The notes under the pieces: generated by a model | Seen by the model: the letters and a program-made list of their open reading frames with translations, nothing else | The model's database searches: none | Told to the model about the DNA's origin: nothing | Shown: piece by piece, positions 4,570 to 8,354 of the stretch | Layout: every line of letters begins with the position of its first letter | Numbering within the stretch: position 1 is the first letter of the stretch | Assembly: GCA_027488715.1 (NCBI GenBank) | Contig: JAIYBD010000229.1 | Span: forward strand, 1-27,721 | From: Bacteroidota bacterium | GTDB taxonomy: Bacteria > Bacteroidota > Bacteroidia > UBA7662 > CANHCV01 | Direction: 5' to 3' | DNA length: 27,721 bases | Position numbers and translations under genes: made by a program

Positions 4570-4707
4570 ATGGCCGTTACTAAAGTTCAGCGCAAGAAGA
4601 AGAAATTGAGAATGCGTAATGATTTGCGCACTCAATTGTTGAAGCAATCTCGCAAAGGTTCTTACAAGAATCCAAATCCAGTTGTAGAAGCTGCTTCAGC
4701 AGAATAA
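4570..4707 (+). CDS. Small basic protein, 45 aa, function unknown
   Basis: Translates to MAVTKVQRKKKKLRMRNDLRTQLLKQSRKGSYKNPNPVVEAASAE. It has its own promoter and terminator and fills an otherwise empty gap. Below the ORF-track size cutoff. Confidence 0.8.
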   Translation: MAVTKVQRKKKKLRMRNDLRTQLLKQSRKGSYKNPNPVVEAASAE

Positions 4708-4721
4708 TTTCTCTGAAAAAT

Positions 4722-4750
4722 AAAAAAGGCCGTCATTCGACGGCCTTTTT
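4722..4750. terminator. Bidirectional intrinsic terminator
   Basis: AAAAAA-GGCCGTC-ATTC-GACGGCC-TTTTT: perfect 7-bp GC-rich stem flanked by A and T tracts, between the convergent stops at 4707 and 4754. Confidence 0.88.
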
Positions 4751-4753
4751 CGT

Positions 4754-5356
4754 TTAAAACAAACCCAATTGCTGGGTTCCTGGATCATTTCCTGAACTTT
4801 TCTTGTTCGATTTCTTTTTGGCCACATTCTTTTGCGGCATAGGCGCAAAAAACCATGGATCGTTTTCCACCGTTTCTTCGGTTACTTTTTCAGTTATAGT
4901 TTCGTGAGATTCCCTTTCCGCAAGAACGACTTCCTCTTTTTGTACTTCCATAACCTCTTCCGTATCCGCTACTTTTTGCCGTGGCGCTTCACCTTCCAAA
5001 GGGGTTGAGGTTATTTCAACCTCTGGTTTCTGCCAACTTGTTTGAGGCACTTCCATTCCCTGGTTTAATGCACCCCACTCAAATAAAGCCGCTGTAATGG
5101 GAACCATGGATTCCCCCAAAGAGGTAAGCGTATATTCCACCCGAGGCGGAATTTGGGGGAAACTTTTCCGAACCAATAAACCATCGGCCTGTAATTCCAC
5201 CAAGGACGACGTTAGCATCTTTTGTGTGATTCCCACAATATCTGCTTTTAAATCAGAAAATCTTTTGGGACCGTATTTCAATTCCCAAACAATCATGGAC
5301 TTCCATCTTCCACCAATGCGATCAAGCGCATACTTGATGACTTGTGCGTCTTTCAT
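4754..5356 (-). CDS. HxlR (MarR/DUF24) winged-helix transcriptional regulator with a ~100-aa C-terminal extension ending in QQLGLF
   Basis: Residues ~5-98 match HxlR (ALDRIGGRWK, GPKRFSDL, GITQKML, PPRVEYTLTSLG, EWG). An in-frame stop 8 codons upstream fixes the start. The tail is E/T/V/K-rich and low complexity. Confidence 0.88.
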   Translation of the reverse strand: MKDAQVIKYALDRIGGRWKSMIVWELKYGPKRFSDLKADIVGITQKMLTSSLVELQADGLLVRKSFPQIPPRVEYTLTSLGESMVPITAALFEWGALNQGMEVPQTSWQKPEVEITSTPLEGEAPRQKVADTEEVMEVQKEEVVLAERESHETITEKVTEETVENDPWFFAPMPQKNVAKKKSNKKSSGNDPGTQQLGLF

Positions 5357-5409
5357 TTGTTTCTTTTTGTAATTTAATTACGCAAATAAACATTATGAAA
5401 ATGAAATCT

Positions 5410-5437
5410 TGGTTACTTTTTTAAAGAAAAGTATCCA
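5410..5437. promoter_or_regulatory. Inverted repeat, candidate operator between the HxlR gene and the divergent GT4 operon
   Basis: TGGTTACTTTT-TTAAAG-AAAAGTATCCA: 11-bp arms with one mismatch and a 6-nt spacer. Confidence 0.5.
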
Positions 5438-5452
5438 CAAATTTTCGAGTTG

Positions 5453-5460
5453 TATCTTTG
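5453..5460 (+). promoter_or_regulatory. -7 element (TATCTTTG) for the GT4-flippase-RluA unit
   Basis: Exact match, then AAAG, then GTG 5465. Confidence 0.75.
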
Positions 5461-5464
5461 AAAG

Positions 5465-6514
5465 GTGAATCAAAAAAAGTCATGGGTTTTTATTACCGAT
5501 TGGTATCCAAGAGAAACAGACCCTTGGAATGGTATTTTCATTGCAAAATGGCTTGATTTTCTAAAAGATGATTTTGATTTCACCGTTATTGTTTGGCGAT
5601 CAAAACAAAGTAGAAATCAATTATGCATTCAAGACACTTCCTTCGGGAAAGAAATCATCATTGAAACTCGTAGCGGACTTTCTGGTGCTTGGTGGCATTG
5701 GATGAAATTTAGAAAGCAGGTTATTCGTGAATTACCCAATAATTTTCAACTTCTTCTCGCTCCACTTCCTTGGTCTTGGGTCCTAAAAAACTTCTTTTTG
5801 GGTTCAAAAAATTACCAACTATCTGAACACCAATCAACGTATTTCCCACTTTATTTTCAAAATCTCTCTTTTTGGAAGAAATTACTTTATCGAAAAGGTT
5901 TAGCAGGTGCTACCCATATTTTTACGGTTTCTTTAGCATTGAAATCTGCTATTTTAACCGAGCTCCCCTCGGCTCAAGTTTCAGTTATTCCAAATCGAGT
6001 AGAAAGAATTCCCATGAAAGGTCGAATAAAAAAGAATCGAATTGCTATCATTGGTGACATTCGCGATCAAGTGAAAGGTATTTCCCAGGGTTTGGAATGG
6101 ATACAGCAAGCTTTTCCATCCTATGAAATTGCCGTGGTAGGAAATGGTCCAGACTTAACGAGAATTAAAGAAACGTTTCCGAAAGTATCTTTTTTACCCG
6201 CTATGCCCCACGATGAATTGTTGTTGTTTATTGAGGAAACCTCTGTTGTGGTAATTAACTCTCCTTTTGAAACTTTTAGTCTCTTAGCATACGAAGTTCA
6301 ACAATTAGGAACTTACCTACTCTGCCGAAAAAATGGAGGACCTGAAGATTATTCTTCCGAACACGTTGTTTGGTTCAGCAATTCATCTGAATTTTCGGTT
6401 GGGGCTCAGAAAATTAAAGAGAATATTTCCCGGAACCAATTTCCTCCCCCGTTTCATCATCAATCTCTTGAAGATTCGAAGATTCTTCAGTTATGGAAGG
6501 AAGCCCTCCAATGA
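5465..6514 (+). CDS. GT-B fold glycosyltransferase, probably GT4
   Basis: N-terminal ITDWYP...GIF, HIFTVS, VIPN, AVVGNGP and the EX7E motif ETFSLLAYE followed by NGG. GTG start. Confidence 0.78.
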   Translation: MNQKKSWVFITDWYPRETDPWNGIFIAKWLDFLKDDFDFTVIVWRSKQSRNQLCIQDTSFGKEIIIETRSGLSGAWWHWMKFRKQVIRELPNNFQLLLAPLPWSWVLKNFFLGSKNYQLSEHQSTYFPLYFQNLSFWKKLLYRKGLAGATHIFTVSLALKSAILTELPSAQVSVIPNRVERIPMKGRIKKNRIAIIGDIRDQVKGISQGLEWIQQAFPSYEIAVVGNGPDLTRIKETFPKVSFLPAMPHDELLLFIEETSVVVINSPFETFSLLAYEVQQLGTYLLCRKNGGPEDYSSEHVVWFSNSSEFSVGAQKIKENISRNQFPPPFHHQSLEDSKILQLWKEALQ

Positions 6515-7731
6515 AAACCATTGTTCAAGTTATTGGAACGCTTTCCACCCGAGTATTAGGAAACCTCATCACTCTTTTGATGTTGGGATATTGGGCCAAA
6601 GTATATGGAATTGATTTTCTAGGGTTCATATCCTTATTCACACTTCAGATCTCCGTTTCTTTTATTTTCTCTGGGATTTTCGCTGGATCCTCGGCTATCT
6701 TTTTTTCAAATCAGTGGAAAAATGGAACCCTGTTTACGGCCTCCATGGTTGGGACTATGGTTTGTTCCATCGGTTCATCGTTGGCTTTGTGGTCGATGGG
6801 ATTGATACCTTCGGAAGCGAATTCCTTTTTCCTCGTAGCGGCTCTTTTCCACGCTTTGGGTTCTTTGTTACAATCCATACACCTCGGACGAGGAAATGTT
6901 GGAGTTTTTAACCATATTCAGTTGATTCAAAATGTAGGTCTTCCCTTTCTTTTCTTTGTTTTACCCATTTCTGATCCATTTGAATTATATGGATATTCTT
7001 GGATTGGAGCTCAAGGAATATCCGGATTGTATGCCGTTATTCGATTCCCCAAATCAGAAGATGGAGAATCGTTATCGTTTGGTTTGGCAACAAAAAAAAT
7101 GTTCAAGTATGGATTTTGGGGACAGTTGACGAATTTAGGACAAATGTTGAATTACCGTTTTTCGTATTATTTGCTTGATTTTTATCATGGACGTGAAGCG
7201 GTTGGAATTTTTTCTGCTGCTATTCAATTGGCAGAATCGACTTGGTTACCAGCTAAAAGCATGGGTACGGTTCATTTAAGTCGATTGCTCAACCTTCCCG
7301 AGCAGGAAGATGATACACCAGCATCCATGAAAGTTGCTTTTTGGGCTTCTCTTGCTGGTGTTGTGGTACTCATGGCTATTCCTAACGATTTGTTTATCCT
7401 CATCTTTGGTGCAAAGTTTTCGAAGGCATTTCCCTATTTTCTTGGTTTAGGTCCAGGAATTATCATCTTTTCGTTTGCCATTATCATCGCCCAATTTTTT
7501 GCTGCTAAAAACAAAATTCAATTGAATTCCATCGCAACCATCTTCGGACTGTTGGCCACTTTAAGTTTGGGATTTGCCTTGGTTCAACCGTTTGAAGTAT
7601 TGGGAGCCGTAATGACGACATCCATTTCTCATGTGATCAATGCTTTTGTCCTACTTTACTTCTACCATAAACAATCGCCCATTCCTTGGAAATTCATCCT
7701 AAACCCGTTTCAATGGAAAACTTCCAAATAA
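6511..7731 (+). CDS. MOP superfamily oligosaccharide/polysaccharide flippase (Wzx/MATE-like)
   Basis: About 12 hydrophobic segments; KYGFWGQLTNLGQMLNYRFSYYLL, VGIFSAAIQLAE and LGPGI. Start moved from 6493 to ATG 6511 (ATGA overlap with the GT stop); 406 aa. Confidence 0.78.
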   Translation: MKTIVQVIGTLSTRVLGNLITLLMLGYWAKVYGIDFLGFISLFTLQISVSFIFSGIFAGSSAIFFSNQWKNGTLFTASMVGTMVCSIGSSLALWSMGLIPSEANSFFLVAALFHALGSLLQSIHLGRGNVGVFNHIQLIQNVGLPFLFFVLPISDPFELYGYSWIGAQGISGLYAVIRFPKSEDGESLSFGLATKKMFKYGFWGQLTNLGQMLNYRFSYYLLDFYHGREAVGIFSAAIQLAESTWLPAKSMGTVHLSRLLNLPEQEDDTPASMKVAFWASLAGVVVLMAIPNDLFILIFGAKFSKAFPYFLGLGPGIIIFSFAIIIAQFFAAKNKIQLNSIATIFGLLATLSLGFALVQPFEVLGAVMTTSISHVINAFVLLYFYHKQSPIPWKFILNPFQWKTSK

Positions 7732-8354
7732 TTTTTGAAGACCCTCAATTTGCTGTATTATCGAAATCTTCAGGAGTAGCCATTCAAAGTTTGGAGTACA
7801 CCATTCATCCTGAAATTGAACAACATTTTCAAGGAAAGTCAATTTTGATTGTTAACCGAATCGACCAACCCGTATCAGGAATTTTCATTTTAGCCTTTTC
7901 AGATTTTGCAGAACGAGATTTAAGATTACAATTCGAAAATCAGATTGCCAAGAAAACCTATGTAGCCATCTGTGAAAACGATATTGGACAAAAAGGGCGA
8001 TTGGATCATCTTCTTTTAAAGGTGGGAAATAAATCAAAAGTAACGAATGACTCGGCTGGAAAACCCTCGTCCCTATCCTATCAGCGTTTTGGAAAATCTG
8101 ATCGATATTTTGGTTATTTCATCCAACTTCATACCGGACGTTTTCATCAAATTAGAACACAAATGGCTCATGCTGGGGCATGCATCAAAGGAGATTTAAA
8201 ATACGGAGCGAAACGAAGTCATCCAGGAGGCGGAATTTGTTTACATTCCTATCAATTGGAAGTCAACCATCCTCAAACGCAAGAACGACTAAAATTCAGT
8301 GCTACTCCACCTCAGGATTCCCTTTGGGATTATTTTAAAACTTTACTTCCTTAA
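7713..8354 (+). CDS. RluA-family pseudouridine synthase without an S4 domain
   Basis: IIFED, the catalytic-Asp motif NRIDQPVSG, KTYVAI, LHTGRFHQIRTQMA, IKGDLKYG and LHSYQL. Start moved from 7686 to ATG 7713; 213 aa. Confidence 0.88.
   Translation: MENFQIIFEDPQFAVLSKSSGVAIQSLEYTIHPEIEQHFQGKSILIVNRIDQPVSGIFILAFSDFAERDLRLQFENQIAKKTYVAICENDIGQKGRLDHLLLKVGNKSKVTNDSAGKPSSLSYQRFGKSDRYFGYFIQLHTGRFHQIRTQMAHAGACIKGDLKYGAKRSHPGGGICLHSYQLEVNHPQTQERLKFSATPPQDSLWDYFKTLLP

Follow-up and report, generated by a model that had tools for sequence, protein, structure and literature searches.

The gene that concerns us here encodes a regulator of the HxlR family that continues, past its DNA-binding domain, into a tail of about 100 amino acids that ends in the peptide QLGLF. 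It comes from a freshwater Bacteroidota bacterium (assembly GCA_027488715.1) and lies in a 27,721-nucleotide stretch of DNA, contig JAIYBD010000229.1, which we refer to as the window. The coding sequence occupies positions 4754..5356 of the minus strand, stop codon included, and encodes a protein of 200 amino acids, according to the open reading frame (ORF) and Pfam. Residues 14-98 (5063..5317, minus strand) form an HxlR winged helix-turn-helix (wHTH) domain, which was identified with Pfam and with a profile search of the genome. The match to PF01638 has an E value of 7.9e-28 and a score of 96.6 bits, as compared to a cut-off of 20.8, so the protein belongs to the HxlR family. HxlR was the only hit when the whole 200-aa protein was scanned against Pfam, and no homology to Mor/MuC was found. 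AlphaFold2, given an alignment of 12 rows, folds residues 1-98 as the winged helix expected for the family (helices at 2-14, 17-28, 33-39, and 45-57; strands at 61-66 and 72-77; helices at 79-83 and 85-98), with block means of the per-residue confidence (predicted local distance difference test, or pLDDT) of 63-89 across residues 1-100. This is the single HxlR gene that was detected across the 2.16-Mb assembly, which is 92% complete.

Like B. subtilis HxlR, YodB, HypR, and CatR, which represent the HxlR/DUF24 family, the regulator is small and has the PF01638 wHTH domain. It has no cysteines, which puts it outside the thiol-switch subgroup (YodB/HypR/CatR); thiol-based sensing, as in YodB or HypR, cannot apply to it, and we dismissed the idea that it is a thiol redox sensor. 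Another difference is that typical members of the family have 105-130 amino acids and lack a disordered 100-aa tail with conserved linear motifs.

The tail has four parts. First, residues 101-160 (4877..5056, minus strand) are an acidic linker that is rich in E, V, and T, with 16 D or E residues and 6 K or R residues; it is predicted to be disordered and it evolves rapidly. In the AlphaFold2 model, residues 106-160 and 170-200 have pLDDT below 50 and no secondary structure. Second, there is an aromatic-proline patch, DPWFFAPMP, at residues 166-174 (4835..4861, minus strand), where pLDDT is slightly higher. This patch is conserved in the long-tail clade only: it is invariant or nearly so in all of the long-tail orthologs, down to 58% identity, and it is absent from the short-tail relatives. 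We note that it constitutes a second linear motif in the tail. Third, a lysine-rich patch, KNVAKKKSNKK, is apparent from the sequence and from the alignment of orthologs at residues 176-186 (4799..4831, minus strand), and most of the motif-bearing HxlR tails that we describe below have K-rich stretches upstream of the motif. Finally, the protein ends with QQLGLF-COOH at residues 195-200 (4757..4774, minus strand), which is conserved in orthologs and is a candidate for a motif that binds the sliding clamp (also known as the beta clamp, or DnaN). QLGLF itself is residues 196-200 (4757-4771), followed by the TAA stop codon at 4754-4756. Because it is at the extreme C-terminus and within the low-confidence stretch of residues 170-200, it is predicted to be exposed. 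The first-pass annotation of this DNA had described a normal HxlR domain followed by a tail of about 100 amino acids with these parts in this order, and the ORF, Pfam, and the coordinates bear out every detail.

The end of the tail is its most conserved part. In a search of 5.8 billion proteins, we found full-length relatives of 200-213 amino acids, with identity down to 58%, and a second group of 127-141 amino acids, whose domains are about 50% identical to that of the regulator. All of these relatives, long or short, end with QQLGLF. Across the orthologs, identity to the regulator is 81-100% in the wHTH domain, 68-100% in the last 40 residues, and 100% in the last six residues. If we consider just the more distant of the long-tail orthologs, then identity is 81-91% in the wHTH domain, 9-34% in the linker, 68-90% in the last 40 residues, and still 100% in the last six. 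The same pattern is seen at two syntenic loci from metagenome-assembled genomes (MAGs) of freshwater Bacteroidetes (L003 and L004). There, the flanking genes are mostly 84-90% identical to their counterparts in the window and the divergent genes (for a glycosyltransferase, a membrane protein, and an RluA protein) are 63-77% identical, while the regulator is just 70-73% identical because its linker drifts. The first-pass annotation had suggested asking whether homologs retain the terminal pentapeptide as their linkers diverge, and this is what we see, both in the orthologs and in a well-supported subfamily of HxlR proteins. It had also raised the concern that the tail might be a strain-specific read-through of a lost stop codon. 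As both the tail and its end persist in orthologs of 58% identity and in still more distant relatives, this explanation is excluded.

Within the genome, QLGLF is a rare ending: among the six-frame ORFs of at least 60 amino acids in the 2.16-Mb assembly, only the regulator ends exactly in QL.LF. Because it is the only such ORF end in the genome, and because the motif is conserved across deep divergence, the terminal QLGLF is more than a chance match.

To see how far the motif extends within the family, we searched 1.84 billion cluster representatives with a profile and ran a word-indexed search with a profile built from eight divergent members, which together yielded 314 HxlR proteins. Fifty-eight of the 314 proteins end with Q-[L/Q/I]-x-L-F plus 0-3 additional residues. 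The endings include QLGLF, QQSLF, QLNLFG, QLDLFS, QLDLFNF, QLDLFTNL, QLPLF(E), and QISLF, and the tails that bear them range from about 10 to about 100 residues. Over eight clusters of HxlR proteins that are 31-48% identical, Q1, L4, and F5 are invariant, position 2 is mostly leucine, and position 3 is free. We also built a maximum-likelihood tree from the wHTH domain alone (96 rows). The tree contains one clade of 36 tips (support 99/94) in which 35 of the proteins have the motif, ending with QLGLF, QQSLF, QLNLF, or QLDLF; the exception is a protein from a contig of 791 bp in which seven extra residues come after the motif. The motif is also present in a separate clade (support 100/97; QLPLF or QQSLFG) and in one further protein (QISLF), and the minimum number of state changes for the motif on this tree is four. 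Given these clades and at least four changes of state, the aligned sequences indicate that the motif is retained over long divergence in HxlR proteins, and that it was probably gained more than once within the family. Motif-bearing HxlR proteins are present in 14 of 41 relatives of the window's genome, and these are spread over four families of the same order.

What might bind this peptide? The consensus for peptides that bind the bacterial sliding clamp, QL[S/D]LF, goes back to Dalrymple et al. 2001 (reviewed in PMC11139829), and QLGLF matches it in its looser form, QLxLF. More specifically, QLGLF-COOH is the clamp-binding motif (CBM) of Pol II from E. coli, which binds the clamp with a Kd of 1.7 uM and whose structure on the clamp is available (PDB 3D1E; PMC11139829). 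Of the variants, QLDLF is the consensus motif, while QLNLF is the motif of Pol V. Mutational studies of CBMs have found that the first glutamine is important, that position 2 is preferably leucine but is tolerant, that position 3 is free, and that the last two hydrophobic residues are strict (PMC11139829). Compared with those studies, the variation in the HxlR tails is confined to the tolerant positions. So the motif is kept while its flanks diverge, and its positions tolerate change as those of a CBM do, which is the pattern of conservation expected of a clamp client. The regulator's motif resembles the C-terminal CBMs of E. coli Pol II and Pol IV in several respects: the pentapeptide is identical to Pol II's, it is at the extreme C-terminus in a flexible region, and Q1, L4, and F5 are fixed with position 3 free. 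It differs in that the carrier has the fold of a transcription factor rather than being a polymerase or a repair enzyme. Another difference is the lysine-rich patch upstream, where the known motifs have acidic flanks, and for the regulator the binding of the clamp is a prediction.

This organism uses the canonical motif, as its own DinB has QLDLF at residues 344-348, right after the IMS_C/little-finger domain (C217:11964-13130, minus strand; L085). About 40 residues follow, so the motif in DinB is internal and not terminal. The remaining instances of QL.LF in the genome are all internal as well, and are in a RecQ-like helicase, a PD-(D/E)XK nuclease, an APH-like protein, and a 1467-aa orphan.

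We also ran an unbiased scan of 401 genomes of Bacteroidota, at the DNA level, for QQLGLF followed by a stop codon, and found 21 matches, versus 13 for the reversed control pattern. Nine of the 21 do not end any real ORF, which is comparable to the 13 control matches, so we used only the 12 that do. These are the HxlR protein of the window and 11 DUF72 (PF01904) proteins from 11 genomes of a single family of Bacteroidota, f24 (L094-L104; for example, L101:652-1518, plus strand, and L100:589-1518, plus strand). The DUF72 proteins end with PPLPxWPxxxxQQLGLF. The stretch rich in proline and tryptophan just before QQLGLF is loosely similar to the DPWFFAPMP patch of the HxlR tail. DUF72, a TIM barrel, is a near relative of UV-damage endonuclease, and damage-response operons are enriched for it (PMC11791011). 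Given the hexapeptide that they share with the HxlR tail, the DUF72 proteins of f24 are probably clamp-tethered, UV-endonuclease-like putative repair enzymes. Because the same portable hexapeptide occurs on two unrelated folds, we suspect that HxlR and DUF72 proteins share a partner.

We asked if the clamp of this lineage has the usual pocket. At the numbering of the E. coli pocket, the lineage's DnaN has R152, T172, H175, L177, P242, and V247, and its C-terminus is MPVM. The dnaN gene of the window's genome (C67:9984-11063; L001:1501-2580) runs into the end of its contig after 360 of about 373 residues, and the assembly therefore lacks the last of the residues that form the pocket. As a stand-in for predicting a complex, we used DnaN from G001, which is 95.6% identical to the truncated protein. 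With residues 156-200 of the tail, the median score was 0.26, as compared to a mark of 0.32, and we count this result neither for nor against binding.

Overall, our best reading is that the tail docks on the DnaN sliding clamp, and given the identity with Pol II's motif, the pattern of variation, the QLDLF of DinB, and the hexapeptide that is shared with DUF72, we consider this fairly probable. Several observations weigh against it. The flanks of known CBMs are mostly acidic and the surroundings of the clamp's pocket are positively charged (PMC11139829), while the regulator has a lysine-rich patch 9-19 residues upstream of the motif; this patch may touch DNA instead. The QQSLF variants have glutamine rather than an aliphatic residue at position 2. 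The equivalence of the DnaN pocket to that of E. coli is taken from near-colinear numbering rather than from an explicit alignment to E. coli DnaN. The neighborhoods of the HxlR genes differ between clades (the glycosyltransferase operon; trxB/DAO; thyA-folA; purL), so there is no common regulon to back a theme of replication. Finally, most of the carriers of motif-bearing HxlR proteins are uncultured MAGs.

One alternative is that the conserved C-terminal peptide acts as a degron that is read by an AAA+ protease or its adaptor, or as a contact for RNA polymerase or another hub, and that its likeness to a clamp motif is a coincidence. Short hydrophobic C-termini often act as degrons, and with the conserved DPWFFAPMP and lysine patches the tail has more than one linear motif, which makes further partners likely anyway. 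A coincidence would have to explain why the positions that are fixed in the tails match Q1, L4, and F5 of the clamp motif exactly, with position 3 free, and why three of the variants have each been validated as a CBM: QLDLF as the consensus peptide, QLNLF in Pol V, and QLGLF in Pol II. It would also have to explain why the sole other family with QQLGLF at its end, across 401 genomes, resembles a repair nuclease, as is expected of a clamp client. And a degron that strictly requires the free carboxylate does not fit with the motifs that have 1-3 extra residues (QLNLFG and QLDLFTNL). We consider this alternative to be unlikely.

As to what the regulator might control, the sequence around the gene is informative. 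The regulator and the gene for a GT1/GT4 glycosyltransferase are divergent, and the 108 bp between them (5357..5464) are strongly conserved, with 85% mean column identity over four loci. One of these four is L077, whose regulator is 58% identical and whose glycosyltransferase is 40% identical, yet the intergenic region is conserved. Within it is a palindrome at 5410..5437, TGGTTACTTTT-N6-AAAAGTATCCA, with 11-nt arms that are 91% complementary, which is a candidate operator for a dimeric regulator. It lies in a conserved stretch of the alignment and has just one substitution among the four loci. Its core, TACTTTT-N6-AAAAGTA, has one exact copy in the whole assembly, which is this one, and the lone copy with one mismatch is inside an ORF on C236. 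When we used the core to seek further copies of the operator across the genome, no regulon emerged. A second, imperfect palindrome abuts the regulator's start codon (5358..5392, with 17-nt arms that are 82% complementary) and is largely conserved. The divergent promoter and the palindromic candidate operator, with half-sites that contain TACT/AGTA, are as in other HxlR/DUF24 regulators.

The divergent genes (5465..8354, plus strand) are candidates for local targets and were identified with Pfam. They encode the GT1/GT4 glycosyltransferase (5465-6514, plus strand), a 412-aa multi-pass membrane protein that has no match in Pfam (6493-7731, plus strand) and whose gene overlaps both of its neighbors, and an RluA-type pseudouridine synthase (7686-8354, plus strand). 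The same divergent arrangement is found in L003, L004, and L077. Judging from this arrangement only, these genes are likely to be the local targets, and the layout is that of a local regulator that would act on its own gene as well as on the divergent ones. On the plus strand, there is a TAtcTTTG box at 5453-5467, which matches the -7 promoter consensus of the Bacteroidetes, TAnnTTTG. It ends only 4 nt before the GTG start codon of the glycosyltransferase ORF, so the mRNA may be leaderless; if not, then the actual start codon would be further downstream.

On its other side, the regulator's gene is followed directly by an intrinsic terminator (4722..4751, minus strand), with a stem of 13 pairs, of which 6 are GC pairs, and a T-run. 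Between this terminator and a gene for saccharopine dehydrogenase, we noticed an ORF for a very basic peptide of 45 amino acids (MAVTKVQRKKKK...; 4570-4707, plus strand), and a 60-aa gene is called at the corresponding spot in L077 (5673-5855).

In other clades, the HxlR genes have other neighbors, and when we sought a conserved regulon from the gene neighborhoods across the HxlR clades, we found none. In the short-tail clade, the gene order is a TonB receptor, DUF4249, a trxB-like gene (312 amino acids, similar to thioredoxin reductase), HxlR, and a convergent gene for a DAO oxidoreductase, with a terminator between the trxB-like gene and HxlR. In cluster P0078, whose proteins end with QLNLFG, the HxlR gene is followed after a gap of 8 bp by the thymidylate synthase gene thyA and then by the dihydrofolate reductase gene folA, which looks like one operon. 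A glycosyltransferase and an unknown gene are also found beside P0078, but these are not homologous to the pair in the window. In clusters P0146 and P0176, the HxlR gene is divergent from purL. (These neighborhoods are at L071:5001-6775 and in L072 and L073.) A link to the supply of nucleotides, via thyA, folA, purL, and the trxB-like gene, is possible, and we mention it as a lead only.

These neighborhoods also matter for another explanation, which accepts that the protein binds the clamp but holds that it does so mainly to control replication and not transcription. It would be a DNA-bound clamp adaptor or regulator, functionally like Hda, YabA, or CrfC, and would for instance titrate or position clamps or act at specific sites on the chromosome. 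Overproduction of MuC, a transcriptional activator from phage Mu, disturbs the initiation of replication by soaking up clamps (PMC12867686). The regulator is also the only HxlR gene of a streamlined 2.16-Mb genome, and some clades adjoin the nucleotide-supply genes just mentioned. But the gene is laid out as is classic for a local regulator, and the palindrome in its divergent promoter is both conserved and unique in the assembly. Furthermore, we saw no link to oriC, dnaA, or dnaN, and the neighborhoods vary between clades. It seems quite unlikely that control of replication is the regulator's main role.

The usual switch of an HxlR/DUF24 regulator is a small molecule or thiol chemistry. A cysteine-free protein needs some other switch and the tail has the length to fold back onto the domain, so the tail might act within the protein, as an autoinhibitory or ligand-mimicking plug on the wHTH dimer or in higher-order oligomerization, with no external partner, but this is very unlikely, as AlphaFold2 does not place any part of the tail confidently on the domain, tails of 10 to 100 amino acids are hard to reconcile with a fixed geometry, and the same hexapeptide is found on the unrelated DUF72 fold.

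Returning to the sliding clamp as the partner, we propose the following mechanism. A dimer of the HxlR regulator would bind, via the wHTH domains, the palindrome that is conserved between its gene and the divergent genes, and would thereby control itself and the adjacent genes for the glycosyltransferase, the membrane protein, and RluA. QLGLF-COOH would dock in the hydrophobic cleft of DnaN that is loaded on DNA, in the way that Pol II and Pol IV dock with their C-termini, and the flexible leash of 100 amino acids could allow each dimer to hold one clamp protomer or two. Clamps that are left behind replication forks would raise the local concentration of the regulator on freshly replicated DNA. 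Occupancy of the operator, or the activity of the promoter, would then depend on replication, or on a passing or parked clamp. Repression might be re-established after the fork passes, or the clamp might assist activation, as with MuC. In this scheme, we infer that DnaN is bound, what the operator and the targets are, and in which direction the effect goes.

A stronger version of this idea is that the sliding clamp is a cofactor of a chromosomal transcription factor, so that the system is a true clamp-dependent switch for transcription. An HxlR dimer at the operator would capture clamps on newly replicated DNA, or would be delivered by them, and its targets would be switched once per fork passage. 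We are doubtful that the regulator goes this far. If it does, then it would be a cellular counterpart of the clamp-dependent late transcription of phages T4 and Mu, and it would have arisen two or more times among HxlR proteins.

We searched the literature and found no paper that combines HxlR and the sliding clamp. When we searched for clamp-binding motifs together with transcription factors or repressors, we found only the work on phage Mu and reviews of the classical partners. So the statement in the first-pass annotation that no clamp-binding HxlR regulator had been described holds in the literature that we searched. To our knowledge, the known partners of bacterial sliding clamps are nearly all replication, repair, or transposition proteins. 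Similarly, we know of documented use of the clamp in transcription only for phage T4 and, in 2026, for phage Mu.

In those phages, the MuC/Mor activators of Mu, and gp33 and gp55 of T4 with gp45, are transcription factors with clamp motifs that couple transcription to replication (PMC12867686). As clamp-binding transcription factors are already known from phages (MuC and T4 gp33/gp55), the principle is not wholly new. The HxlR regulator shares with them the concept of a transcription factor that is tethered to the clamp; this is a functional likeness only and, for the HxlR regulator, it is predicted from the sequence. There is no relationship in sequence or family, and the HxlR regulator is a cellular protein, encoded on the chromosome rather than by a phage and passed on vertically within an order of Bacteroidota. 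Furthermore, MuC has two near-consensus motifs, while the HxlR regulator has one terminal motif on a long leash. Among cellular proteins, the regulator is similar to Hda, YabA, CrfC, and the transposases of insertion sequences in being a regulatory or DNA-binding candidate client of the clamp with a short CBM on a flexible end. These proteins have other folds and other roles, and none of them is an operator-binding regulator of the HxlR type. What is new here is a cellular, vertically inherited family of regulators with a conserved candidate clamp motif.

The conservation of this motif spans about 50% divergence of the domain and tails of 10 to 100 amino acids, and it suggests that, in the HxlR subfamily that keeps the peptide, the control of genes may be tied to DNA replication. 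The DUF72 proteins of the Bacteroidota family f24 are also flagged by this peptide as probable clamp-bound repair enzymes. If our reading of the HxlR tail is true, then host cells, too, would wire the control of genes to the passage of the replication fork. It would also provide a simple system for replication-coupled transcription in bacteria, with one small protein, one peptide, and one operator.
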